Assembly: GCA_947629445.1 (NCBI GenBank)
Contig: CANRDU010000001.1
Coordinates: forward strand, 68,642 to 132,641
Source: an uncultured Bacilli bacterium
GTDB taxonomy: Bacteria > Bacillota_I > Bacilli_A > RF39 > UBA660
Direction: 5' to 3'
DNA length: 64,000 nucleotides
Positions 6,689 through 45,050 of this stretch are shown one piece after another. Positions within the stretch are counted from its first letter, which is position 1. Each line of letters starts with the position of its first letter. A program made the position numbers and the translations under genes. The notes beneath the pieces are model-generated. The model did not search any database. It worked only from the letters and a program-made list of their open reading frames with translations, and was not told where the DNA came from.

Positions 6689-8122
6689 TCATCTACTTAA
6701 AGGCTTATCTTTGGAATGTTCCATATCCATTGACAAAAGTAATGATTTTAAATTAATTGACTCATGCCAATTAAAATTATAATCATTATTATTACCATTT
6801 GAACAATCATATAACTCAATTTTTCCCTTTTCTCCTAGGAACCATCTACCATGTACAAAAGAATTCCTTATATGTTTAGCATCATAATCTGTACCGGCTA
6901 CATTTATTGTTTCATCATCAACAAGTGAATCTGCTATATATCCTAAATATAAAGAAATTGGATACATTATTCTAGAATTATAATCCCTAAATAATAGAAT
7001 AGTACTTACTGGTATAACACCATTCTCAACTTCAAATGATTCTATTAATGTATTATATCTTTGCTTGTCAAAATTGTTATATTCTTCAGAACTAGTACAA
7101 ATAGGTTCATATATCTTTCCACTAGTGATATTACTAAGTTTATTTAATATCTCATTATAACTTAAATTTGGATCCGTCATAAACCAAGCTGCAAATATTT
7201 GTTCAAACTCAAATTGATTACTGTGATACATTCCTAAAGGTATGACGTCATTTAATGCGTTTTCTATAACTATTTTTAAACCCTTAGGGTCATATTTCGT
7301 TAAATCTATATTACATAAATTAGATAATATTTCATATGCCTTATCAATTTGTTCTTTCTTTAAAGGAAAAGTTACCATTGAATAATCCAAATAACCATGA
7401 TTTTTAAAAATCTCCTGTACTTTTTTTATTATTTCTGCAGCTGTGTTAAATTGATATGGATTCTTAAAATCAAAATTATATAATTCAGTTAGTATTGTAG
7501 AATCCATCTTTTTATTACAATAAAAGCGGATGAATTTTAACTTTGAAATTTCCAATTTTGAATATGGATGATTAAAATCAAAATCATCAAAATCTATCAT
7601 AGCCATGAACATATTACGACTTTTTTTAATTAGTTCTATTTCTATGCAACCTAACTGCTCAAAATTCATTTTTACATGAAATGGTATTGGTTTTGTATTT
7701 TTTAAATCTATTTCTAAATATTTGCCATTAACGGATATATTATATAGTTGTTTATCTTTATCACTATGATTAAATGCATTTCTTATGAATTTAATTATTT
7801 GTTTTTTACTAAAGTATTTAGCATCTTCAGGATTTACAAATATGTTTTCTTTTATTAAGTCAAAATCAAGTTCGTTCTCACTGAGATAGTCTATATTCAC
7901 ATCTTCTATAAAAGAGAGCATTCTTAATTCTGTTATGAATTCATATACTCTAATAATTCTTCTAAAATAGTTATCATTAGATTCATCAATTCTATTACTT
8001 CCTATCATGTAATATTTAAAAACATCCCCTATTTTCGTATTAGGATTATTTCTAATCAGTTCACATAATATCGCATAATCTCTTAAACATTTAGCTATCT
8101 CATTTTTTTTCAAACTTATCAT
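6689..8122 (-). CDS. Protein with two RxxxxH (HEPN-like) motifs; putative ribonuclease
   Basis: IRNAFNH in the N-terminal part and IRNSFVHG in the C-terminal part; SD AGGAG upstream. Confidence 0.6.
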   Translation of the reverse strand: MISLKKNEIAKCLRDYAILCELIRNNPNTKIGDVFKYYMIGSNRIDESNDNYFRRIIRVYEFITELRMLSFIEDVNIDYLSENELDFDLIKENIFVNPEDAKYFSKKQIIKFIRNAFNHSDKDKQLYNISVNGKYLEIDLKNTKPIPFHVKMNFEQLGCIEIELIKKSRNMFMAMIDFDDFDFNHPYSKLEISKLKFIRFYCNKKMDSTILTELYNFDFKNPYQFNTAAEIIKKVQEIFKNHGYLDYSMVTFPLKKEQIDKAYEILSNLCNIDLTKYDPKGLKIVIENALNDVIPLGMYHSNQFEFEQIFAAWFMTDPNLSYNEILNKLSNITSGKIYEPICTSSEEYNNFDKQRYNTLIESFEVENGVIPVSTILLFRDYNSRIMYPISLYLGYIADSLVDDETINVAGTDYDAKHIRNSFVHGRWFLGEKGKIELYDCSNGNNNDYNFNWHESINLKSLLLSMDMEHSKDKPLSR

Positions 8123-8792: not shown

Positions 8793-11700
8793 TTATTTTC
8801 TACGAATACCCTTTCTAATACCCCAAATAAACTCTAAACTAATTAATAAGCAAGCTGTTACAACAATGCCAATAAGCGCTAATAAATCTTCGTTTTTCAT
8901 AGCCTCTTCGGCTTTCTTTTTCTTTTCAAGTTGCTCTTTGCTTAACTCAGTAGTATTGCTGCTTACTACAGAATTAGAATTATCCTCTTGCTGATAATTA
9001 GAATCATTATTATCATTATCAACTACGGAATTACTATTAGTATTTATATTACTATCGGTATTACTGTTCGTATTCGTATTACTGTTGCTATGCGTATTGC
9101 TATTTGTACTAGTATTACTGTTTGTCTTAGTATTACTGTTAGTTTTAGTGTTACTATTCGTTTTGGTATTACTGCTACTATGTGCATTGCTATTTGTTTT
9201 AAAATTACTGCTGCTATGTGTATTACTATTTGTACTCGTATTACTATTGGTCTTAGTGTTGCTGCTTGTGTTAGTATTAGAATTTTTATCATTCTTATCA
9301 TTAGGATTTGTACTTGATGAGGTTCCTCTTATTACTTTAATTGTCATTTCATAGGCCTCATGATTCATATCTCCATTGAAACGAACTGTTAAATAATTAT
9401 CGCCTTCTACTAATGCAATATCTTCATCTTTCCACTGCCATCCACTTGGTAAATGAATATCTCTTAAACTTGTTGTATCTTTTGATATAGTGATTTCTGA
9501 AGATACCATTACAGATGGTTGCTTTGCTTTTTTTACTTCAAAAGTACCTACTAATTCTCCAGTATATATACCAATACCCTTTATAGTAATTTGCTTTTCT
9601 CCTGCATCGTTATTTTCAGGCCAAATGATTTCATAATCAAAATCTTCTACGAGGGTGTGCCCTTCATTATTTTTAACTGTTACACTTGGTCTTTGAATAT
9701 CCCCAGTATAGTATAAATCACTATCCTCTATCGTTACGTCATACCCATGAGTAATGTCTATTGGATCAGATGTAGAATCTACTAAAGAAAGTATAACTAC
9801 AACTTCACTAGTATTGTTATCACTATCCGTTACGATGATAGTTATATAGTATGTTCCTTCTTTTAACCAACTTCCATCCCAATCCGTTTGAATAGATACT
9901 TTCTCACTATTCAGTTCAATTGGACCATCTTCCTCATCGTAAATAGAAATGATATTTTTAAAGTAATCTAAATTCTTAGGTTCTTCTTTGGAAATATCAA
10001 ATTGAAATTTTGTTTGATTTCCTGTTATTTTAATTTCAGGTCTGTTTCCATTATCTTGCGTTACTAAAATCTTCATCTCATAAACTTCATAATTAACCTT
10101 ATCATGATATATAGCAATCGCTTCCACAGTTTTCCCTGCTTTAAGAGAAGTTTTTGGGTTTTGCCATGACCAACCTTCTGGTAATCCCAATACCTCTCCT
10201 AGTGTATCTTGATCAACAGTTGCTTGCATTTTTCGTTCTGGCATAGTATCTGGTCGTTCGGCTTTGGCAATCTTAAAGTTTTTTTCTACTGTTCCTTTAT
10301 AAATACCTAAACCTGTTATTTTGATGATACCTGTTCCAGCATTTACATTATTTTCATAGGTGATGCTATAGTCTTCATCTTTAATTAATTCCCTATCGCC
10401 GTCTTTTACGGTTATAGAAGGTTCATGGGCATGACCATTATAAATATATCCACTAGAAATATAACTAACAGATAAATCCTCCATAGATTTCGTCTTATTT
10501 ACTTTATTTTCATACAAATTAATGATGGCGGCAGAAGCATAATTTCCCCCTTTTGTTTCTAGTCCTGTAAGGCGAATGTAATTTGCTTGTATTGGTGTTT
10601 CAAAGAAATAGGATTTAATAGTATTATCGTTAGCCCATTCAATGTCATTCGCAACTACATTCCAATTTTCACCATCCATACTAGTTTCAATTTTTGCTTT
10701 GGTAATTCTACCATTCGCCGAACCATCCTGTCTTGGCAAATATTCTAACTTAGAAATTTCAGCTCCATCAGTAATTTCAATTTGAATCCATTTTTCATTG
10801 TCAGAGCCATCCCATTTTGTGTGCCATATTGTTCTGTTATGACCATCGATAGCCTTACTAGGATCTTCTCCTCCTTGATTAGAAGAAGCGGTTGCTTTCA
10901 ATCTAGAAATAGGAATATAAGACCTTGTCTCATCATATTCAGCATCTAATTCAAAATTTAAAGATACGGAAGGTCCTGGAAGAGTTACTCCTGTATAAGA
11001 ATTTCTAACAAGAATGGTTTTGTTGCCAGATAAATCTGGTAGTTTTTCTGAGAATTTCGTCCATTTGCTAACATCTTCATTCTCACGGAAAACACTGAAA
11101 GGTGAAGATGTTTGTACTTTCCATTCCATCGTTGATGTTACTCCCATTACCTTATTTTCCCATTCATTGGCATATAAGTTAGTTGGAATACTTGCCTCTT
11201 TTAAATCAATGATAAAACAGTTTTTAATATCATCGCGATCAGATGTTCCCACAATGTGAACAACAATATCATCATCAGCATCTAATTCTTGAATACGATT
11301 ACTTAAATCAATAAAAGTAGAACCACTTGGAACTCTTGTCCAAGTACGTTCACCATTATAGTTAAGACTAAATTCTATTTCTACTGGTGTCGTAGCATAA
11401 GATCCTACCAAACGAAGTTGATTTGGATAATCTCCATCAAAAGAGAAGTCAACAACTTTATCACTTGTTTGACCTAATAAGCTTTTCGCCATATCTCTCG
11501 TTACTCCGGATTGAAGATAAACCCCATCTTTTACTTGGCTCATCTCTGTTAATACAGATTGTTTCGTGTTGAGATATAGCGCACGATTATCTAAAGAAAT
11601 CTCAGCTTCAATAAGTCTTAATAAATCCACCATTGGAAGTGGCCACTCTTTCATGTTTTCCATAATACGAGTAGCTAAAGTATAATAGTCAGATGCTGTT

Positions 11701-13709
11701 TTCGTTTGATCTTCTAAATATGTTTGAATAAGTCCATACCAAGCATCTAAATTATAAGGTTGAATAGTTAAAGCTTCTTCATAGGTATCAATTTTTCTTT
11801 CAATGTCATTTTCCAAAACGTCTGCTAATAACACTCTCATGAATGACTCTTCAAAGTCATCAAAATTATCAAGTGCTCGTTGAATTAAAATGATATAACT
11901 AACATTGTAGTAAGAATGCCATTTATTTGCTTTAGAACCCCAGTTTAAAGGGAATCTCTCCCCTTTTTCAGAAGCTGCCCAACCAGAAGCGGCATTACCA
12001 ATTCCCCAAGTAGTCGTATAAGTTCCATCTTCATTTTTCGTAAATGTTGGAGATAAGTAAGCAGCATGTCCTGGTTGACCAATAACGGCTGTTGGAATTC
12101 CATAAGACGCTAAAAGGTTTGCACCCGTCTTTGATAGTGCACCACATACACCATCTTCTTCCCAAACAATCCATAATCTTGGTTTAGCGGTTGTATTGGT
12201 TCCTACACCAAATTCTTCTAAATGGTACTCATCATTACAACTTGCTCCACGGGTATAGCCTTTCTCATTTTTATTACGGTAATCTGTAGCGCAGTAGTGA
12301 GAGTCTTCTTCATAATATTGTGGATCATAATAATTCCATCCCTGATAATAAGCAATATAAGTATAGGGATTCAAAGAAGAATGGGCTTTCGTACGATTAC
12401 TATATTTCGTCGTTCCCTTTGGATTATGAGCCATTGTCTTATCATCTAATACTGGTTGAGTATTGGTACTATACCAGTTTAGCCATGGAATTTCTTCGTC
12501 ACTAAGTTGATTATCCACTACCCAACGTAATTGCTCAACAGTTAGAGTTTCAAAATAATCTGTTTCAAATTCTACTTTGTTAGCTAATCCATCTAAATAT
12601 AATTGCTTTAATACTTTATACCTCTCAACAGGATCTGAACATACCCTTTCATTATGTTCTCCAGATACCCAAAAGCATACATCACTAGAATGTGTTAAAG
12701 AAATAGCAAGCATCAATCTCAAGTATAAATCACCATGGTCTTTATCTTCTAAATCAGAAGCATATTTGGTATATAAACTAGATAATACATTTAAAGATCT
12801 TACATAAGAACCAACTGGTGTTCCTCCTAATAAATATTCCTTTAAAATTTCATAATCATTAAATAACCATTTTAAAGTGTTAGCTTGATTCTCTTCTCCA
12901 GTAGCATAGGCTTGTAAAATGTTATAACCGATTCTTTTTACCAATGTTCTTTGAAGAAGAATCTGTGTTAATTCCTCACTAGCAAAGATTTCCTTATTCG
13001 TTTTCTTAGATAAAATTTCATCATATTCAGAAGTTGTTTTAATATATTCTACTTTACTACTTTCTTTAGGAGAATAAGTCTCACTATTATATAACATCGC
13101 ATCTGCATAAACCGCATGATCAGATGATTGATCACGGTTATCATATGCATAAAGTTTTAAATAACGATATCCTTGCAAATCGAGAACTACTTTTTCTGCA
13201 TTCATTTCTCCTTTTAAAATTCCGGTTGTTTTAAGTACTGTCCACTCTTGATTATCATTCGATACAGAAATGGTAAATTGTACTCCATTACCACTAGAAC
13301 CTCTACTAGCATCTACTCCCACATAAGCAGAAAAAGTATTAAAAGGAAGTCCCTCTAAGTCATACACAACCGTGCTCGTTGCATGGGCAAAAACACCTTT
13401 TAAAAAGAATGTTTCTTCACCATCTACAATAAGAGAAATTAAGTTTCCTGATTCATTGATATCCTTGCGAAGTGCCCTAGAATCTCTCCAACCACTCGTT
13501 GCAGATAACCATGTTAAATCAGAAAGATAAGCATGTGTAGCACTAGCATCAATAGAGGTAGCATTTATAGAAGCCTCTTCTTTTTTCATAGCGGCATAAA
13601 GACTCGTTGCTACCATTGAAAGTGGCACTTCAAAGTTCATTAAAGTAATGACAAAACTGAGTGTCACCAATAAGATTTTTTCACAAAGTTTGTGAATATT
13701 CTTTCTCAT
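8793..13709 (-). CDS. Large membrane-anchored surface protein: signal peptide, NPCBM/NEW2 domain, unknown Cys/His core, F5/8 type C (CBM32-like) domain, Ig-like repeats, N/S/T linker, C-terminal TM
   Basis: YLSDL.W...KGVFAHA..YVGVD..HAVYADA (NPCBM); ATASS..KAIDG..TIWHT..YLPRQDG (F5/8C); YNG..HEP..NAG repeats; DEEDG Ig-like module; hydrophobic C-terminus with RKGIRRK tail. Confidence 0.85.
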   Translation of the reverse strand: MRKNIHKLCEKILLVTLSFVITLMNFEVPLSMVATSLYAAMKKEEASINATSIDASATHAYLSDLTWLSATSGWRDSRALRKDINESGNLISLIVDGEETFFLKGVFAHATSTVVYDLEGLPFNTFSAYVGVDASRGSSGNGVQFTISVSNDNQEWTVLKTTGILKGEMNAEKVVLDLQGYRYLKLYAYDNRDQSSDHAVYADAMLYNSETYSPKESSKVEYIKTTSEYDEILSKKTNKEIFASEELTQILLQRTLVKRIGYNILQAYATGEENQANTLKWLFNDYEILKEYLLGGTPVGSYVRSLNVLSSLYTKYASDLEDKDHGDLYLRLMLAISLTHSSDVCFWVSGEHNERVCSDPVERYKVLKQLYLDGLANKVEFETDYFETLTVEQLRWVVDNQLSDEEIPWLNWYSTNTQPVLDDKTMAHNPKGTTKYSNRTKAHSSLNPYTYIAYYQGWNYYDPQYYEEDSHYCATDYRNKNEKGYTRGASCNDEYHLEEFGVGTNTTAKPRLWIVWEEDGVCGALSKTGANLLASYGIPTAVIGQPGHAAYLSPTFTKNEDGTYTTTWGIGNAASGWAASEKGERFPLNWGSKANKWHSYYNVSYIILIQRALDNFDDFEESFMRVLLADVLENDIERKIDTYEEALTIQPYNLDAWYGLIQTYLEDQTKTASDYYTLATRIMENMKEWPLPMVDLLRLIEAEISLDNRALYLNTKQSVLTEMSQVKDGVYLQSGVTRDMAKSLLGQTSDKVVDFSFDGDYPNQLRLVGSYATTPVEIEFSLNYNGERTWTRVPSGSTFIDLSNRIQELDADDDIVVHIVGTSDRDDIKNCFIIDLKEASIPTNLYANEWENKVMGVTSTMEWKVQTSSPFSVFRENEDVSKWTKFSEKLPDLSGNKTILVRNSYTGVTLPGPSVSLNFELDAEYDETRSYIPISRLKATASSNQGGEDPSKAIDGHNRTIWHTKWDGSDNEKWIQIEITDGAEISKLEYLPRQDGSANGRITKAKIETSMDGENWNVVANDIEWANDNTIKSYFFETPIQANYIRLTGLETKGGNYASAAIINLYENKVNKTKSMEDLSVSYISSGYIYNGHAHEPSITVKDGDRELIKDEDYSITYENNVNAGTGIIKITGLGIYKGTVEKNFKIAKAERPDTMPERKMQATVDQDTLGEVLGLPEGWSWQNPKTSLKAGKTVEAIAIYHDKVNYEVYEMKILVTQDNGNRPEIKITGNQTKFQFDISKEEPKNLDYFKNIISIYDEEDGPIELNSEKVSIQTDWDGSWLKEGTYYITIIVTDSDNNTSEVVVILSLVDSTSDPIDITHGYDVTIEDSDLYYTGDIQRPSVTVKNNEGHTLVEDFDYEIIWPENNDAGEKQITIKGIGIYTGELVGTFEVKKAKQPSVMVSSEITISKDTTSLRDIHLPSGWQWKDEDIALVEGDNYLTVRFNGDMNHEAYEMTIKVIRGTSSSTNPNDKNDKNSNTNTSSNTKTNSNTSTNSNTHSSSNFKTNSNAHSSSNTKTNSNTKTNSNTKTNSNTSTNSNTHSNSNTNTNSNTDSNINTNSNSVVDNDNNDSNYQQEDNSNSVVSSNTTELSKEQLEKKKKAEEAMKNEDLLALIGIVVTACLLISLEFIWGIRKGIRRK
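9030..9290 (-). repeat. Degenerate 18-bp tandem repeat encoding the NTKTNS/NTHSSS hexapeptide linker
   Basis: Periodic gtattactgttt/gtattactattt units within the CDS. Confidence 0.8.
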
Positions 13710-13824
13710 ATTATTTACTCCTCCCCATTCTTTTCAATCTCTATAAAAACTCCTTTTGGTCGTTTGTACGCCTATTATATCACTTTTTTTGAAATTCTCA
13801 ATATTTTCTAATAAGACTTTGTTA

Positions 13825-13914: not shown

Positions 13915-14382
13915 TTATCTTGTTAAATTTTCAACAAAATGATAAATCTTATCTGGATTCATAATTGCTTGCTTGATTCCGTTCGGATATATTTCATAAG
14001 AGTCTATCTTATCTACATCAATCCAATGAAACTGAATCCAATCTCCCTCAATGCCATGGAATTGTTCACTAGTGATATCCCCTGGGAATATTCCTTGATA
14101 AATCAAATTGATTTGTTGATTAAAGTATCCTTTGTCTTCCACAAATTCTTCGCTGATAGCAAGAAAAGAATAACTCAACCCTTCAAAGCCTAATTCTTCT
14201 TTTATTTCTCTTTTTAATGCCTCTAAACTTTCTTCCTTTTGGTTAACTTTTCCACCAGGTAGCAGAAAAAAATGTCTTCCTTCACAGTTGAATAAAAGCA
14301 CTTTGGTTTTATCTTTATTAAAGATTAGACAAGATACTCGATATAAGAATTGAAAATCATCTTTTATATATTTTATGTCCAT
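13915..14382 (-). CDS. Nudix hydrolase
   Basis: Nudix box GGKVNQKEESLEALKREIKEELG. Confidence 0.9.
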   Translation of the reverse strand: MDIKYIKDDFQFLYRVSCLIFNKDKTKVLLFNCEGRHFFLLPGGKVNQKEESLEALKREIKEELGFEGLSYSFLAISEEFVEDKGYFNQQINLIYQGIFPGDITSEQFHGIEGDWIQFHWIDVDKIDSYEIYPNGIKQAIMNPDKIYHFVENLTR

Positions 14383-14460: not shown

Positions 14461-14784
14461 TTATTTTTTCAATACTTTTTCTAAAAATATTTTCTTTTCA
14501 AAAGTTCCCCTTTTATCCCCTTTTTCTTTGGCAATCGCAATTACTTCCTCTAAAGTTGAATTCTCTAATTGAGCTAAATATCTGATAATTTCTAACATAT
14601 CTGCCAATTCTTCAACTCTATCCCTCCCAGATGCATCCATAACTTCGTGATATTCCTCATTTAATTTTCTTTCTAGTTCTATTTTATATTCTTCATCTGT
14701 TAAAATTCTAGTGATTGGTTCTTCACCATTGGACCTAATAATTTCAGGTATCCTATCTCTTACCAATTTATGATATCTTTGCAT
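14461..14784 (-). CDS. MazG-like/PRA-PH nucleoside triphosphate pyrophosphohydrolase
   Basis: KLVRDRIPEII...KLNEE..E...EELAD...KRG.F signature. Start at MQRY (SD AAGGA). Confidence 0.85.
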   Translation of the reverse strand: MQRYHKLVRDRIPEIIRSNGEEPITRILTDEEYKIELERKLNEEYHEVMDASGRDRVEELADMLEIIRYLAQLENSTLEEVIAIAKEKGDKRGTFEKKIFLEKVLKK

Positions 14785-14866
14785 CTTATGTTTCCTTTCC
14801 TTTATACGAATACATTTCATAAAAACTTATCTATTTCTATTACATTTTGGGATGCATTATTCACAG

Positions 14867-15949
14867 TTATTTTTCTCTTAATGACAAATCTCTATTACAG
14901 TAGGCATATTTACTAAGCCAATACGCATCATTATTCTCATGATATTCTCCAACGGGAACTTTGGTTGCTAAATCACTCGCTAATTCTAATATTTCATCTT
15001 TTAATTCAATATGATCTTTATATTCAGAAGGTATTTTTTCATATCCTAGATATGCTCCCATGATATTACCTGCTATCGCCCCTGTAGAATCAGAATCACC
15101 ATCATGATTTACCGAACAGACAATAGCATCTTTGAAATTATTAGAATATTTCAAGCAAGAATAGATAGCTATCGCAAAAGCCTCTTCGGCAACCCAACCT
15201 TCCCCAAGTTCTGAAATTGCTTCTATATCTTTCTTATTTTCTTCTGATAGTTTTATCGCTTTATTAACTAACCCTACAAAATAATGCTTATTTTCTCTAT
15301 CAAAAATATCAAAATTTTCTTCGTATTGTTTCATGGATTTCTCTAATGCTTCTTTGATAGTTAAATCCGTTCTTGATAAATACCATATTAATGTTGAAAA
15401 TACATAAGATGGAATGATTCCCAGAGGATGTCCATGTGTTATCGCACTCGCTTCTGCTCCAAACTTCCCTGCTATTTTTGAATCTGCCATATATAGACCA
15501 AGGGGTGCCACTCTCATTATTCCTCCACACCCTTTACTATTGTTGATAGGTTTTTCAATGGTTCCCTTAATACCGGAAGATAATGCACTAATACAAGTAT
15601 TTCCTGGAGCACGTGCAACATTTAACTCTTTTAAATTCTTAATCCAAGAAATAGACGAATGATTATCAGTATTATTTTGCGTATCTAACCAATCTAAATA
15701 TGCTAGATATATCGCATCTACTGGTAACATGGCGATTCCTCTCATAGCCGCTCTTGTTTCTCTAAATAATAAAGCATTTGCTGTGAATAAAGTCATTTGG
15801 GTATCATCTGATATTATTCCTTTATCACCCCTAAAGGAAGTGATTTCTTTATCCTTTATCCCTCTTTTAAATTCTATTTGATAGCCTAGGGCATCTCCAA
15901 TAGCGCCCCCAATTAATGATCCACAAATTTTATCTTTTTTATGATTCAT
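14867..15949 (-). CDS. ADP-ribosylglycohydrolase (DraG/ARH family)
   Basis: GAIGDALG, SDDTQMT, GCGGIMR, THGHP and NHDGDSDSTGAIAG motifs. Confidence 0.93.
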   Translation of the reverse strand: MNHKKDKICGSLIGGAIGDALGYQIEFKRGIKDKEITSFRGDKGIISDDTQMTLFTANALLFRETRAAMRGIAMLPVDAIYLAYLDWLDTQNNTDNHSSISWIKNLKELNVARAPGNTCISALSSGIKGTIEKPINNSKGCGGIMRVAPLGLYMADSKIAGKFGAEASAITHGHPLGIIPSYVFSTLIWYLSRTDLTIKEALEKSMKQYEENFDIFDRENKHYFVGLVNKAIKLSEENKKDIEAISELGEGWVAEEAFAIAIYSCLKYSNNFKDAIVCSVNHDGDSDSTGAIAGNIMGAYLGYEKIPSEYKDHIELKDEILELASDLATKVPVGEYHENNDAYWLSKYAYCNRDLSLREK

Positions 15950-16811: not shown

Positions 16812-17957
16812 TCAATTACCAGTAGAATGGTTTCTGCTTTTTTCTAGTTTTCTTTGTAATCTTAATTGCTTTACTTCTTCTTTTTTTACTTCATCTGTAT
16901 CAATTTGACTAGCTAATGCATTGACCATTCTTTGATGTAATTCAGTTTCTTCAGGAGTATATTTCGTAACGCAATCATGATGAACAGATTGAATTAATTT
17001 TTGCATTGACACTGTATCTATCTTTTCCTTTTTGCTTGCTCGAAAAAAATATCCAACATAGCATATTAAATTTTTAGATCCACCAGCTTTTATATATTCA
17101 TTTATAAATTGTCTTAAGCCTGGATCTGAATAATCTACACCATATATCATTGGAATATCTATATTTCTTTCAAATTCTTTAGCAAATAAGAATGCCCTAC
17201 GAGGACCAATTCTATTTCCACCTCTTTCAATTATTCTATACATAACACAATTAAGTATTCCTTCTTTTTGGTAAGCCCATTTTTTCGCATGATTAATTGT
17301 TGCTTCTAACTCATTATCACTTGGTAAAACAATTCCATTTTCCTTTAATAATTGAACTACATCTTCAATATGCATTCCTTCTAGATTTTTATCTTTTACT
17401 TTAAAATGCGTATAGGCATCCAATCCTTCTGACTCTTGAACAATTCCATCGGAAGTCAAATGTAAATGTGCACTGCTACCATCAAGTTCAACATATACTA
17501 AATGGCTATATCTTGGCTTTTGAAACAAACTTCTTTCTTCCCAAGGTAACGAGTTAATAAATGTTTTCGCATTATAAAATTCATCCCAATCTAAAACTCT
17601 TACATCGGAATCTTCGTCCAATTGTTCATTTATATATCCATTGCTATTAAACATAACATCATCAATTTTAATATTTTCTTGACTAGAAGTAGGCATTAGT
17701 CTATTTATTTCATAATCTGGATATCTTAATTCATACCAAACTGCCATTTTTTCAATGAGATTTCTCATTTCCATCGGTTGATGATATTCTCCGATATCTG
17801 TGTAATGCCCTTTCACCATATTTTCAAAATACCAATCTATAAACTCATTTACTTTATCATCTAAAGCAATAGGAACTATTTTACTTTGTTCTTGTCCTTT
17901 TCTTAATAAGTTTATATGCATGAATTTCCAATTAATTTTTTTCTTCGGTAATAGCAT
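16812..17957 (-). CDS. Hypothetical protein
   Basis: Long ORF; start moved to MLLPKK after SD GGAGG. Confidence 0.75.
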   Translation of the reverse strand: MLLPKKKINWKFMHINLLRKGQEQSKIVPIALDDKVNEFIDWYFENMVKGHYTDIGEYHQPMEMRNLIEKMAVWYELRYPDYEINRLMPTSSQENIKIDDVMFNSNGYINEQLDEDSDVRVLDWDEFYNAKTFINSLPWEERSLFQKPRYSHLVYVELDGSSAHLHLTSDGIVQESEGLDAYTHFKVKDKNLEGMHIEDVVQLLKENGIVLPSDNELEATINHAKKWAYQKEGILNCVMYRIIERGGNRIGPRRAFLFAKEFERNIDIPMIYGVDYSDPGLRQFINEYIKAGGSKNLICYVGYFFRASKKEKIDTVSMQKLIQSVHHDCVTKYTPEETELHQRMVNALASQIDTDEVKKEEVKQLRLQRKLEKSRNHSTGN

Positions 17958-18120
17958 ATAACAAAACCTCCATTTGTAAGAATATTTTACCATATTTCTT
18001 TAAGAAATTTTCATAGTTTACTAATTAATAAAATACACACGCATATGCTTATCTATATGCAGTGTGTTTCCTAAATTACCATAATCCATTCCAATTACGT
18101 AGTATTTATATCCTAATTTT

Positions 18121-39470: not shown

Positions 39471-42400
39471 TCACTTTTTCTTATTGGCATATAATCTATT
39501 TTTTAATAAAATTACTAATGTTATTATACCAACTCCCAACGTTGCAAATCCTAAAAGATAGAACCATGGATTTTCTTTCTTTTCCATTGATTTTTGCTCG
39601 TTTACGGATTCTGATGAATTGTCATGACTGTTAGAACTTGTATTACTATTGATATGAGTATTACTATTCGTACTAGTACTTTCATTACTACTAGAATTAC
39701 TACTAGTATTCATCTCTGGATTGGAATTGGTGTTACTGCTAGTATCCATATCTGAATTGGAATTGGTATTACTATTTGTATTCAAAGAAGTATTAGAATC
39801 ACTTGTTGTGGAACTATTAGATGGTTTCTTACTGGTATTACTAGATGGCTTAGTATTGGTATGCGTATTGGTATTACTGTTTTGATTACTAGTATTATCA
39901 CTTGTCGATGGCTTTGTTTGTTCTGGCTTTGTCTTTTCTTCTGCCAGTTTCGTCACTACCACTACTACTTCCATCGCAATGTGATTATTATCGCCATCGT
40001 AAATCGCAGTTAACGTATTTTTTCCTTCTACTAAAGGAATATTTTCATCTTCCCAATGCCATCCTTCTGGAAGTTCTACTTCTTTAGCTATTTTCGTATT
40101 AGAAGATACTTCTATGTTGGATTTTGGCATATCTTTTGGTCCTACTTTTTCAATCGTAAAGTTAAGTATTTGAATGCCAACATACTTTCCTATTCCTGTA
40201 ATAGTAATCGTAGCGGTTCCAGCATTTTTGTTATTGTCATAAGAAACGGTATAATCAACATTTTCTTCTAATACCTTACCATCCTCATAAACGGTAACTT
40301 TTGGAGTATATTCTTCGCCATTATAGACAAAATTATCTTCTTCTACTTCTATCTGTAAACCACTAATATTTATTTTCTTCTCTTCTTCGATGATAATCAC
40401 AATATTTGCCTGAGAAATATTTCCATGAGAATCGGTTACTGTAACGGTGATAAGCCAAGTTCCTAACTGCCACTTAAGATCACTTTCTATCTTTACAGCC
40501 TCATCCTCTATATCAATGATGCCATCTTCCTCATCCGTTATTTGAATAAATGGTTTAAAGTATTCTAAAGTAACTTCTTCATCATGAATATTAAAATGAT
40601 ATTCCTTATTTTCAATCGAAATGACAGGAGATTTTCCCTTATCTTCCTCTGGAATGGAAGCAGCCTCCCGAATAACCGTTACTTCCGTTTCATATCGTTC
40701 ATGATTGATATCTCCAATAAAGAAAATAACGACTTTATTTTCTCCTTCTTGAAGTTCGATGCTCTCATCTTTCCATTGCCACTCATTTGGAAGATTAATT
40801 TGCTCTAATCTTGTCGTGTCATGAGAAACATGCATTTCTAAGGAAACCATTTCTTTTGGCTGCGTCGCTTTCTGAATAGTATAACTACCCGTTAGCGTTC
40901 CCTGATAGATATTCTTACCAGTAATCGTTACTGTATGTTTTCCCGCATTCACGAGTTCGCTAAATTCAATATCATAGTCGATTCCTTGCGTTAATTCGTG
41001 ATTTTGATGTTCTTTATCTCTAACAATAACAGGGATAGATAACTCATCTCCTGTGTAGAAAAGATTATCATCTTCAATCACTATTTCAAAATTTTCTTCC
41101 GTAAGTTCAATGGAATCGGTTGTCTTATCTACTAGAATGACATTCAAAGTATATTCTACTTCATTTTGATCACTATCTGTTACATGAATCGTAATTTGAT
41201 AAGTTCCCTCTACTTGCCAGTTAATATTAGAAGATACTTGTACTTTTGTAGAATCATTAATATCGATAGTTCCATCTTCTTCATCGGTGATGGTAATCAT
41301 CTTTTTAATTTCTTCTAAAGTTTTCACTTCTTCACCAGTGAATTCAAATTCTAAGAACTCTTTGTTATCTTGAATCGTTATGACAGGATGATATCCACGG
41401 GCTTTCGTAACGGTAATTTCTAATTCTACATTTTCATAATTATCATAATCATGGTAAATAGCTGTTGCCGTAATCGTTTCACCTGAAACAAGTGGTGTAT
41501 CACCATTTTTCCATGACCACCCTTCTGGTAGTTCTACGTCTGATAATTTTTCTTTAGTAGCATCTACCATCATCTTGGCATTTGGTGTATTATGTGGTTT
41601 CTCTGCTTTAGCAATGGTAAATGTTTTTTGAATAGTTCCATCATACTTTCCTAGACCAGTAAGTTCGATAGTGGCTTCCCCAGCACTAATGTTGTTACTA
41701 TATGACACAGAATAATTGGTATTTTCAATCAGTTCTGTCTCATCGTCTTTTACTGTCAAAACTGGTTTATGTTCACTACCATTATACGTATAGCCATCTT
41801 TGATATAACTTATCGTTAAATCTTCTACAGGAATAGTATCTTGCACACTCGTTTGATATAAATTAATCATTGCCGCTGATGCATATCCACTAACAGACTC
41901 TAATGCTTGAATTCTCACATATTTTGCATTCATCGGAGTCGTTAATGTATACGACTTGGTAGAATCATCGTTCGCCCAAGAAAGTTCATCAGCGATAGTC
42001 GTCCATTTCTTACCATCTATACTAATTTCAATTTTTGCTTTTGTAATACGCCCTGTTTCATTAAAATCTTGACGTGGCACATAATCGATTTTCGATAGTG
42101 GAATTGATCGATTCGTACTAACGATAATCCATGGCTTTTCCGTATTACTTTTCTTGCTTAACCAGAAACTATAAGCATTTCCATCAATAGCTTTTTCTTT
42201 AGATTCTGTTTCATTCGCATCACTAGAAGTTTCAACTGATAAGCGAGAGGTTGGTACATAGATTGTTTCTTCGTTATGTTCATCTGGCTCAAAAGTAAGG
42301 AAAACAAATTCACTTGGAAATCTCTGAGCCGTATAACCGTCACGAACTAAAACCATTGTCTGCTTATCATCATGAACAGTAGGCTCAGCATCTTTAAACT

Positions 42401-45050
42401 TCTGCCACTTTACAGAATCAGGATCTAAGAATAGTTCTACAATATCATCAAAATTTTCCAGTACATACCATTCCATAGAATCGGTAACTCCTGTAACACG
42501 ATTTTCTAAACTATTCGCATAAATATTGTGTGGAATATTTCCTGGTTGTAAATCAATAAAGAATAAATTATCGACATCATTTCGATCATTTACGAGAAGA
42601 TGAACAACAATATCATCATTGACATTTAATTCATCAATACGATCACTTAAATCAACGACAGTTTCCCCATCCGTTACTTGTGTCCATTCAGTAGTATCAC
42701 TAACTCTTTGATGTTCTGCATCATATTCATAGTTTAAAGTATATTCAAATCTTATCTTCTCTTCAGCAGCTTTATTTAGAAGCATCAACTTATTCGCATT
42801 TTCTCCATCGAAAGAGAAAGTAGCGGTATCATTATTCGCCTTTATGCCAAGCAGATATTTGGCAATATCGCGAATGGCAGATGCTTGAAAATAATCTTCA
42901 TCTTTCACATTTTTTAATTCATTTAAAGTATCATTTAACAGTTTCGCATAAGCTGGACTATTATGAACAATTTTAGCATCAATTAACTTGAGTAAATCAT
43001 ACATTGGAAGAGGATATTCTTTAAAAATAACGAGAATTCTCTTAGCTAATTCAAAATAGTCATCATCTTCTTTGGAAGGATCATTCAAATAAGTTTGAAT
43101 TAATTGATACCAAGCATCTAAGTTGTATGGCTGTTCTTTAATGGCTTGCTCATAAGCTGCAATTTTATCTTTGAAAGAAGTTCTCACTTCCCCTAGTAAA
43201 TTATACAAAAATGCTTTTTTATAGTTATCCCAATCATCTACAGCTCTTTGAGCTAAAAGGAGATAGGCTCCATTATTGCTGTCGGTCCAAGTACCTTCTC
43301 TTCGCGTTCCCCAGTTGAGCATCATACGTTCTCCCTTATAGGAAGCAGCCCAACCAGCAGCAGCATTACCAATTTGCCATTCTCTTCTTTTCTCGCCCTT
43401 CCACTCTGTTTCTTTAGAAACGAAGTAGGCTGCATGTCCTGGTTGTGATACTAACGTAGAAGGTCTTCCATAAGACATTTCGATATTTGATCCTGTTCCG
43501 GCTAGAGAACCACAAACACCATCTTCTTCCCATATGGTCCAAAGACGAAGTGGCGAACCTGGTTTTGTCTCTAAATCAAAATATCCTAGTCCATACTTCT
43601 CATTACAATTAACGCCTCTTTTATAACCCGGACTATTATTCTTATTCTGGTTAACCCCTTCTGCACAATGGGTAGAATTTTCTTTATAATATTCTGAATC
43701 TTCATAATTCCATCCACTAGCATAATAAATGTAAGTATATGGATTGGTATATCCATCTTTATTGTATGGGGTTTTTCCAGCTTTTGTCATCTGTGTATAC
43801 CAATTCAACCATGCAACTTCTATATCACTAATACGATTATTAACAACCCAACGCATCTCTTCTATTTCTAGATTGGTAAAAATATCTTTCTCAAAATAGG
43901 TTGAAACATCATCATAAGTATACCCAGTTGTAAGTAAATTTTTAATAACTTCATATCTATCTAAAGCATCTGATGGTGTTCTAACAGGTTCTACTGGTTT
44001 TTCTGCTGTCTGCCAGAAATTAACATCGGTACTATAAGTAAGAGAAATAGCCATCATCATCTTCTCATAGACATCACCATACTCTTCATCATTCAAATCT
44101 TCCTTATGAGCTTCATATAACTCTTTAAATACATTGAGAGCTTGAATGTAATTATCCCCTTCAGGTGTTCCCCCTAATAGATATTTCTCCATCAACTCTC
44201 CATCGTTAAATAGCCAATAGATAAAGTCATACGTAGATTTATCTTGATTGACATAAGCTTGTAACATACTATAGCCAATACGACTAACCAATGTTCTTTG
44301 TAATAATTTTAATTTTAATTCCTTGTTAGCTAAAATTTCTGCATTGGTATATGGTAATAATTCTTGGTCGTATGTTTCTACCGTTTTAATCCACTCCACA
44401 TTAGGGTTTTCCTTAGGTGAATAAATCTTACTATCATATAGCATAGCATCCACCCAAACAGAGTGATCATAAGAATTGTCTCCATTACTATCCGCATATA
44501 ATTTTAACCACTTATAATCTTCCAAAGCAACCGTGATTTTAGCAGCATCATTATTTCCTTTTAAAGCTTGCGTAGATTCTAATTGTACCCAATCTTTATC
44601 GGTAATAGATTCATAAGTATCATTTTTCGCACCATAGACAAAGAATTTAACCCCAGTACCATTAGAACCTTTACTAGAATCGACTCCCGCATAGGTAGTA
44701 AACGTATCATAGTTGAAACTTCTTAAATCATAAACAAGGGTAGAAGAAGCATGGGCGAAAATAGCGTTCATAGAATAGATTTTCTCACCATTGATTAATA
44801 TAGAAATCATCCCACCAGCATCATTCTTATTAATCTTCACATCTCCATATCCCGTTTTAGCATAATGCCATTTCAGATTGGATAAAAAAACATATCCTTC
44901 CTCACTAGTATTCTTATTGGTTTCTTTTGCATCTGATCCAATCTCTGCTGCAACAAGCGGAATTGGGACACTAACAACTAGTAAAGAAACGCTTAAAAAA
45001 CTTAATGTTATTTTTCGAATAATTTCTTTTATATGTCTTAATTTTTTCAT
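39471..45050 (-). CDS. Large membrane-anchored surface protein, paralogue of 8793-13709
   Basis: Same order of NPCBM, Cys/His core, F5/8C, Ig-like repeats, N/S/T linker and TM, with one extra repeat unit. Confidence 0.85.
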   Translation of the reverse strand: MKKLRHIKEIIRKITLSFLSVSLLVVSVPIPLVAAEIGSDAKETNKNTSEEGYVFLSNLKWHYAKTGYGDVKINKNDAGGMISILINGEKIYSMNAIFAHASSTLVYDLRSFNYDTFTTYAGVDSSKGSNGTGVKFFVYGAKNDTYESITDKDWVQLESTQALKGNNDAAKITVALEDYKWLKLYADSNGDNSYDHSVWVDAMLYDSKIYSPKENPNVEWIKTVETYDQELLPYTNAEILANKELKLKLLQRTLVSRIGYSMLQAYVNQDKSTYDFIYWLFNDGELMEKYLLGGTPEGDNYIQALNVFKELYEAHKEDLNDEEYGDVYEKMMMAISLTYSTDVNFWQTAEKPVEPVRTPSDALDRYEVIKNLLTTGYTYDDVSTYFEKDIFTNLEIEEMRWVVNNRISDIEVAWLNWYTQMTKAGKTPYNKDGYTNPYTYIYYASGWNYEDSEYYKENSTHCAEGVNQNKNNSPGYKRGVNCNEKYGLGYFDLETKPGSPLRLWTIWEEDGVCGSLAGTGSNIEMSYGRPSTLVSQPGHAAYFVSKETEWKGEKRREWQIGNAAAGWAASYKGERMMLNWGTRREGTWTDSNNGAYLLLAQRAVDDWDNYKKAFLYNLLGEVRTSFKDKIAAYEQAIKEQPYNLDAWYQLIQTYLNDPSKEDDDYFELAKRILVIFKEYPLPMYDLLKLIDAKIVHNSPAYAKLLNDTLNELKNVKDEDYFQASAIRDIAKYLLGIKANNDTATFSFDGENANKLMLLNKAAEEKIRFEYTLNYEYDAEHQRVSDTTEWTQVTDGETVVDLSDRIDELNVNDDIVVHLLVNDRNDVDNLFFIDLQPGNIPHNIYANSLENRVTGVTDSMEWYVLENFDDIVELFLDPDSVKWQKFKDAEPTVHDDKQTMVLVRDGYTAQRFPSEFVFLTFEPDEHNEETIYVPTSRLSVETSSDANETESKEKAIDGNAYSFWLSKKSNTEKPWIIVSTNRSIPLSKIDYVPRQDFNETGRITKAKIEISIDGKKWTTIADELSWANDDSTKSYTLTTPMNAKYVRIQALESVSGYASAAMINLYQTSVQDTIPVEDLTISYIKDGYTYNGSEHKPVLTVKDDETELIENTNYSVSYSNNISAGEATIELTGLGKYDGTIQKTFTIAKAEKPHNTPNAKMMVDATKEKLSDVELPEGWSWKNGDTPLVSGETITATAIYHDYDNYENVELEITVTKARGYHPVITIQDNKEFLEFEFTGEEVKTLEEIKKMITITDEEDGTIDINDSTKVQVSSNINWQVEGTYQITIHVTDSDQNEVEYTLNVILVDKTTDSIELTEENFEIVIEDDNLFYTGDELSIPVIVRDKEHQNHELTQGIDYDIEFSELVNAGKHTVTITGKNIYQGTLTGSYTIQKATQPKEMVSLEMHVSHDTTRLEQINLPNEWQWKDESIELQEGENKVVIFFIGDINHERYETEVTVIREAASIPEEDKGKSPVISIENKEYHFNIHDEEVTLEYFKPFIQITDEEDGIIDIEDEAVKIESDLKWQLGTWLITVTVTDSHGNISQANIVIIIEEEKKINISGLQIEVEEDNFVYNGEEYTPKVTVYEDGKVLEENVDYTVSYDNNKNAGTATITITGIGKYVGIQILNFTIEKVGPKDMPKSNIEVSSNTKIAKEVELPEGWHWEDENIPLVEGKNTLTAIYDGDNNHIAMEVVVVVTKLAEEKTKPEQTKPSTSDNTSNQNSNTNTHTNTKPSSNTSKKPSNSSTTSDSNTSLNTNSNTNSNSDMDTSSNTNSNPEMNTSSNSSSNESTSTNSNTHINSNTSSNSHDNSSESVNEQKSMEKKENPWFYLLGFATLGVGIITLVILLKNRLYANKKK

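Follow-up and report, generated by a model that had tools for sequence, protein, structure and literature searches.

The gene at positions 8793 to 13709, on the minus strand of a 64,000-nucleotide stretch of DNA from an uncultured Bacilli bacterium (contig CANRDU010000001.1 of assembly GCA_947629445.1; the whole stretch is called the window below), encodes a surface protein of 1638 aa (P0001). Our favoured reading, to which we give a probability of roughly 60%, is that this protein is an extracellular thiol hydrolase which is guided by lectins, belongs to the transglutaminase-like superfamily and acts on host glycoproteins; its substrate and its chemistry are what we infer. A first-pass annotation of the window, made from the sequence and its open reading frames (ORFs), had described two carbohydrate-binding modules (CBMs) on either side of an unannotated region, and this is indeed the architecture: an NPCBM module lies at residues 60-206 and an F5/8 type C module at residues 938-1060, with no significant Pfam match between them. 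It had also reported neither a glycoside hydrolase (GH) motif nor an HExxH motif, and we confirmed that HExxH is absent from both this protein and its paralogue in the window and that no GH family of Pfam is matched. The gene, the parts of its head and the paralogue are the following.

8793..13709, minus strand: whole gene, 1638-aa surface protein (4917-nt ORF; ORF list and translation)
13092..13532, minus strand: NPCBM/NEW2 (CBM51-type) carbohydrate-binding module, residues 60-206 (Pfam PF08305, E 6e-28; PDB sequence matches to CBM51 modules)
12465..13034, minus strand: all-helical N-terminal lobe of the core, residues 226-415, with near-invariant D319, R363, Y364, E392, R395 and W409 (AlphaFold2 model, predicted local distance difference test (pLDDT) 95-99; conservation)
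11910..12212, minus strand: proposed transglutaminase-like alpha+beta catalytic sub-domain, residues 500-600 (hhalign to Transglut_core, P 3e-5 to 3e-4; DSSP of two models)
12144..12146, minus strand: codon TGT of Cys522, proposed nucleophile, residue 1 of a helix (kept in 253/255; aligned to the Cys of Transglut_core)
12066..12068, minus strand: codon CAT of His548, proposed general base, residue 1 of a strand, in a Q-P-G-H motif (kept in 255/255; aligned to the His of Transglut_core)
11994..11996, minus strand: codon AAT of Asn572, proposed third residue of the triad, just past the hairpin partner strand, in W568-x3-N572 (kept in 252/255; motif parallels W-x3-D)
11475..11897, minus strand: TPR-like helical C-terminal lobe of the core, residues 605-745 (AlphaFold2 model; top Foldseek matches to TPR with probability up to 0.97 but E > 0.1; weak TPR sequence matches)
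10920..11447, minus strand: middle domain, residues 755-930, probably beta-rich, opening with an invariant FSFDG motif (weak Pfam match to DUF4073, E 5e-4, below the cut-off; conservation)
10530..10898, minus strand: F5/8 type C (CBM32-type) carbohydrate-binding module, residues 938-1060 (Pfam PF00754, E 2.4e-27; PDB matches to CBM32 modules)
39471..45050, minus strand: paralogue of 1859 aa with the same head architecture; Cys513 at 43512-43514, His539 at 43434-43436, Asn562 at 43365-43367 (sequence comparison)

Three motifs carry the proposed triad. They read WEEDGVCG (residues 516-523), GQPGHAAY (residues 544-551) and WGIGNAASGW, and the cysteine and the histidine had been assigned to the correct codons from the beginning. 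The third motif, given originally as W.IGN..GW, is present, but its spacing was one residue short, since three residues precede GW (W.IGN...GW). Similarly, the span first singled out, positions 12055-12500, corresponds to residues 404-552, which include Cys522 and His548 but leave out Asn572. An acidic or Asn residue had been expected downstream of the Cys-His pair, and Asn572, within W-x3-N572, takes this place. As had been claimed, the motifs are conserved in the paralogue, where they read WEEDGVCG (Cys513), SQPGHAAY (His539) and WQIGNAAAGW (Asn562). The two proteins are 44% identical over 1443 aa; the one studied here contains eight cysteines (positions 9, 345, 357, 473, 491, 522, 831 and 1620), while the paralogue has only three in total.

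Conservation was counted across 255 members of the family, some positions being covered by smaller totals. Cys522 is kept in 253 members, His548 in all 255 and Asn572 in 252, with Asp at the Asn position in a single member; because these residues are near-invariant in the 255 family members, the Cys-His-Asn motif is beyond chance. Gln545 and Pro546, next to the histidine, are each kept in 254/255, and several aromatic residues are similarly constrained (Trp409 247/247, Tyr454 248/248, Tyr605 253/255). Carboxylates are less strict than the triad: Asp319 is found in 225/245, Glu392 in 226/246 and Glu584 in 210/253, these three being replaced in 8-17% of members by, for example, P, A or G.

Remote homology and predicted structure of the core

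An alignment of Transglut_core (PF01841) was built from 30 loci of related genomes and used for profile-profile comparison with the family. The family sub-domain aligned with Transglut_core over 38-48 columns, placing Cys522 on the Cys of that family and His548 on its His. With 120 family sequences, local hhalign gave a P value of 1.8e-4; with 255 sequences P was 3e-5 to 1e-4 (probability 58-74%), and a second implementation of hhalign returned P 3e-4 (probability 40%). As controls, a reversed template gave P 0.33-0.76, the best of 40 block shuffles 1.5e-3, and five other segments of the core compared with Transglut_core 0.007 or higher, and known members of the clan compared with each other gave P 0.02-0.12. 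The motif W568-x3-N572 mirrors the W-x3-D of transglutaminase-core sequences. The papain or transglutaminase type proposed for the Cys-His pair needs to be narrowed, as the two residues lie about 26 positions apart, a distance that suits transglutaminase-like cores but not papain itself. From these comparisons the core appears to be a real but distant member of the transglutaminase-like superfamily (PF01841 / clan CA), in which Asn replaces Asp.

The core was also modelled by AlphaFold2 (residues 210-760, with an alignment of 72 sequences), and secondary structure was assigned by DSSP. The model is confident (pLDDT 92, predicted template modelling score 0.92) and has four parts, leading from the all-helical lobe (226-415) through a long loop and a small alpha+beta element to the TPR-like helical lobe (605-745). 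The sub-domain was modelled separately as residues 449-612, with pLDDT 85.6. In both models Cys522 opens a helix (core positions 313-326), standing at its N-terminus, His548 begins a strand (339-349), and Asn572 comes right after another strand (355-362), which is the partner of the His strand in the same hairpin. The sheet of the sub-domain is modelled as three-stranded and antiparallel. As predicted by the models, the topology of the triad is that of papain-fold thiol enzymes of the transglutaminase type. The register of the profiles with Transglut_core, the AlphaFold secondary structure and the W-x3-N motif all support the early suggestion of a glycan-targeted Cys-His enzyme.

Several results, however, weigh against this assignment. 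The hhalign probability stays below 75%, under the conventional level of 90-95%; the confident stretch spans the Cys and the His but not the third residue, and extending it does not put W-x3-N in register with W-x3-D. The third residue itself is Asn, while transglutaminase cores have Asp. Searches with Pfam and NCBIfam, run on the whole protein, on its core and sub-domain and on 21 members of the family, gave no match in the core, Transglut_core included, and for PF01841 this holds at E values up to 10; a six-frame scan of the source genome with the same model detected two other genes, on contigs C13 and C17, and not this one. The proximity of Cys522 and His548 is deduced from topology and homology. 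Structure prediction followed by Foldseek, the check proposed in the first-pass annotation, delivered the confident model with the triad topology described above but no matching structure of the transglutaminase or papain type: the 50 best PDB matches of the full core were all helical-repeat proteins, mostly TPR, and the sub-domain gave nothing with E < 0.3 in PDB or BFVD. Within the same clan, Asn is the papain-type alternative for the third residue.

Two further searches concerned the same question. PDB sequences, searched by phmmer with the protein and by hmmsearch with the sub-domain profile, yielded only CBMs, weak TPR matches and noise. A comparison with Transglut_core3 was dropped, as a single true member was found in 250 genomes.

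Other families with a catalytic cysteine were considered and rejected. Thiol peptidases of the NlpC/P60 and Peptidase_C39 types do not give a joint register of Cys and His: hhalign returned P 0.02-0.03 for NlpC/P60, with only 7-12 columns around the His aligned, and P 0.12-0.26 for Peptidase_C39_2. In clan CD (caspase, clostripain) and in sortases the His precedes the Cys, which is the opposite order of residues. The nucleophile elbow of GATase and alpha/beta-hydrolases requires G-x-C-x-G, whereas the motif here is G-V-C-G-A and the sheet is three-stranded and antiparallel.

Proposed mechanism and rival explanations

In the favoured reading the protein would be a membrane-anchored surface enzyme held off the cell by a long stalk. 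Its head would form a fixed three-part unit: a CBM51-type lectin (NPCBM), the core of about 550 aa followed by the short middle domain, and a CBM32-type lectin. Within the core, the N-terminal lobe and the TPR-like lobe would act as a helical clamp around a very divergent transglutaminase-like (papain-fold, clan CA) sub-domain. Both lectin modules may dock on Gal- or GalNAc-terminated host glycans, for example of the mucin or blood-group type; the thiolate of Cys522, activated by His548 and oriented by Asn572, would then attack an amide carbonyl of the bound glycoconjugate to give a thioester, which water would resolve.

As the most likely substrate we see a peptide bond of some densely glycosylated protein of the host, and the enzyme would then be a thiol-type glycoprotease. 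We favour the peptide bond because proteases and isopeptidases make up most of the bacterial transglutaminase-like enzymes that have been characterised, because the Asn variant is the arrangement of papain-type hydrolases, and because the architecture parallels that of CBM-flanked M60-like glycoproteases.

Our second choice of substrate is a glycan-proximal amide, cleaved in a PNGase-like or de-N-acylating manner. Here the same thiol triad would hydrolyse an amide of the glycan, either the Asn-GlcNAc bond or the N-acyl group of GalNAc, GlcNAc or sialic acid, and we consider such a glycoamidase unlikely. In its favour, the eukaryotic PNGase, which cleaves the Asn-GlcNAc bond, is to our knowledge the only transglutaminase-fold enzyme acting on glycoconjugates; the catalytic core is permanently placed between two lectin modules, and strictly invariant aromatics (W409, Y454, Y605) and polar residues lie around the core, as in sugar-binding sites. 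However, the Zn-binding CxxC pairs of Png1 are absent, none of the eight cysteines forming a CxxC motif, and no similarity of sequence or fold to the PNGase entries of PDB was found. The lectin modules do not discriminate between N- and O-glycans, since CBM51 and CBM32 typically bind Gal or GalNAc termini. PNGase is named in a catalogue of papain-like proteins (PMC10318531).

It is also conceivable, but quite improbable in our opinion, that the protein is a carbohydrate-active enzyme, in which the helical lobes form the site of a GH or polysaccharide lyase (PL) with carboxylates, Tyr and Arg, and Cys-His-Asn has a structural role. The CBM51-X-CBM32 layout is a classic one for clostridial glycosidases, as seen in the PDB sequence matches, the helical lobes are rich in conserved D, E, R, Y and W, and the order of a helical and then a beta domain recalls some lyases. 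Against this, no GH or PL was matched in Pfam or NCBIfam and no GH or PL fold was matched by Foldseek with the core, and the candidate carboxylates are replaced at the frequencies given above, while Cys, His and Asn are essentially invariant. Least probable of all, and only a slim prospect, is a true transglutaminase that cross-links the bacterium or its proteins to host glycoproteins through isopeptide bonds, or an adhesin that only binds them. Homology to the transglutaminase-like superfamily would suit the former, and adhesins typically have a long stalk, a membrane anchor and lectin modules. Yet the characterised bacterial members of the superfamily are mostly hydrolases, among them LapG/BTLCP, pseudomurein endoisopeptidases and protein-glutaminase, and Asn in third place is how papain-type hydrolases are arranged; in a pure adhesin it would be rare to see an invariant Cys-His-Asn and some 30 further near-invariant positions maintained over 500 clusters.

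Current explanations of how host glycoproteins are degraded in the gut invoke glycosidases and zinc glycoproteases. The family described here is widespread and unannotated, and its design is that of an enzyme directed at glycans, except that a thiol triad stands at the centre. If active, it would represent a new catalytic type in the turnover of mucus and glycoproteins and possibly a new tool enzyme for glycoproteomics, and it would explain why bacteria whose genomes measure only 1.3-1.8 Mb have as many as three copies of the gene, each 1400-1900 codons long. A more ambitious proposal, which we regard as possible but doubtful, is that the head is an unrecognised class of enzyme, an extracellular lectin-guided Cys-His-Asn amidase of transglutaminase ancestry used by gut Firmicutes on host glycoconjugates; it could be the first thiol-type glycoprotease of mucin or the IgA hinge, or else a bacterial PNGase-like or de-N-acylating glycoamidase. 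We found no Pfam or NCBIfam model and no solved structure for the core, and the literature that we searched, including the papain-like catalogue (PMC10318531), contained no description of an NPCBM-core-CBM32 family. Judged from sequence, the family is probably new, a highly divergent branch of a known superfamily, and its context is probably also new, being extracellular, lectin-flanked and targeted to host glycans.

Gene layout, family distribution and genomic context

Outside the head, the following features were recognised in and near the gene.

13774..13801, minus strand: promoter-like site TTGAGA-16-TATAAT with a TG extension (extended -10), about 65 nt upstream of the ATG (consensus scan, 11/12 matches; pattern match only)
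13590..13709, minus strand: signal-peptide-like N-terminal segment, residues 1-40, a basic start followed by a hydrophobic stretch (read from the translation)
9315..10502, minus strand: repeat stalk, residues 1070-1465, internally repeated units (internal repeats in the second BLAST segment; relatives have Big_3 or Bact_surface_Ig-like domains here)
8910..9314, minus strand: Asn/Ser/Thr-rich low-complexity linker, encoded by tandem repeats (composition; Tandem Repeats Finder)
8796..8891, minus strand: C-terminal hydrophobic helix and basic tail (LLALIGIVVTACLLISLEFIW GIRKGIRRK), membrane anchor (read from the translation)

The signal-like N-terminus, the repeat stalk, the linker and the C-terminal hydrophobic helix, in addition to the housekeeping nature of the neighbouring genes, are the reasons why we read the protein as a stand-alone, membrane-anchored, stalked surface protein, with a distal head made of NPCBM, core, middle domain and CBM32. 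Tandem Repeats Finder located the repeats of the linker at 9058-9279, with units of 18 nt (about 12 copies) and 54 nt (about 4 copies) and 66-67% matches; variation in length from strain to strain is likely in this region.

In the window the gene is surrounded by housekeeping genes, which encode NUDIX, ADP-ribosylglycohydrolase, CTP synthase and tRNA synthetases. Directly upstream, on the minus strand, we found a NUDIX hydrolase (13915-14382), an ORF of 119 aa without a Pfam match (14461-14820) and an ADP-ribosylglycohydrolase (14867-15949), a trio that may serve the processing of ADP-ribose. Two other ORFs on the minus strand, 6689-8122 (477 aa) and 16812-17993 (393 aa), had no Pfam match at E 1e-3. 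Searching for conserved neighbours of the family, we clustered 651 neighbouring ORFs from 78 loci and the best cluster was present in only 8 of them; no partner recurring in more than 8/78 loci, an operon-based clue to function was ruled out. The neighbouring genes of two Clostridium loci are likewise unrelated.

The family is large. Clustered at 90% identity, the results of a word-based search form at least 468 groups; almost all of these have NPCBM and F5/8C modules and bear only generic names. An exhaustive profile search gave 501 representatives at 50% identity, 286 of which scored below 1e-10. In species-representative genomes 431 loci were found, mostly in metagenome-assembled genomes (MAGs) from the gut of rabbit, mouse, chicken, horse and human. 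Carriers are classified as Bacilli or 'Tenericutes', Lachnospiraceae, Mediterraneibacter and Faecalimonas, and cultured ones include Clostridium sardiniense DSM 2632 and Clostridium spp. B9, LIBA-8841 and SGI.024. Some mouse-gut MAGs titled 'Candidatus Saccharibacteria' or 'Muribaculaceae' (L054, L055, L056, L057 and others) hold copies 50-56% identical to the Firmicutes-type query, which could reflect mislabelled bins or horizontal transfer.

Within the source genus the distribution is patchy, with the gene present in 8 of 20 genomes in 1-3 copies each. Two genomes of this genus contain a pair of family genes about 5.5 kb apart (G004:C3:103471-109327 and G013:C3:99347-105197), and the 78 fetched loci hold 91 family copies; from these pairs and this excess of copies over loci, local duplication is therefore common. 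The source assembly, of 1.32 Mb (79% complete), has two family genes (1638 and 1859 codons) within 31 kb, which for an assembly of this size is a heavy investment in surface proteins for host glycoproteins.

The NPCBM-core-CBM32 unit stays intact in giant relatives, which reach 4068 aa, and in eight unusually large or rearranged relatives no second catalytic Pfam domain was detected. One relative of 1802 aa (P0235) has a Peptidase_M26_N region upstream of the core (E 6.7e-15). Peptidase_M26_N is the N-terminal region of IgA1-specific metalloendopeptidases, and its presence is a weak hint of targets such as immunoglobulin A or O-glycosylated hinges.

Comparison with known systems

The first-pass annotation had drawn a parallel with M60-like glycopeptidases, which is fair as an analogy of architecture and nothing beyond. 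M60-like and other zincin O-glycopeptidases of gut and clostridial bacteria (e.g. of the ZmpB/ZmpC type) are also large secreted or surface-anchored proteins of mucus-associated bacteria, with a catalytic domain flanked by lectins of the CBM32 or CBM51 type; the present family, however, has no HExxH and no metallopeptidase match in Pfam, and its proposed nucleophile is a thiol, so the likeness is one of analogy and not of homology. Bacterial transglutaminase-like cysteine proteinases (BTLCP, LapG, Peptidase_C93) are extracytoplasmic transglutaminase-fold thiol proteases specific for large surface proteins, and in this they are like the proposed enzyme; they differ in being small, periplasmic, single-domain enzymes of Proteobacteria, Cys-His-Asp in type, Ca2+-dependent and free of lectin modules. 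The eukaryotic Png1/NGLY1 (Rad4/PNGase, PF03835) can be likened to the proposed enzyme as a transglutaminase-fold Cys-His-Asp thiol amidase which acts on a glycoconjugate and needs glycan recognition (PMC10318531), but it is cytosolic and Zn-binding and carries neither CBM51 nor CBM32.

Another related system is the bacterial proteins with Transglut_core itself (PF01841, clan Peptidase_CA). The two share the order Cys...His...(Asp/Asn), with about 26 residues from Cys to His, a 'G-x-C' where the helix starts, then a 'G-I-P-x-x-x-V' that runs into the strand of the His, and W-x3-[D/N] on the next strand. What distinguishes the family is its Asn as third residue and a unique Q-P-G-H motif, the insertion of this core between a helical lobe of 190 aa and a TPR-like lobe, and its constant position between CBM51 and CBM32 modules, outside the cell and on a stalk.

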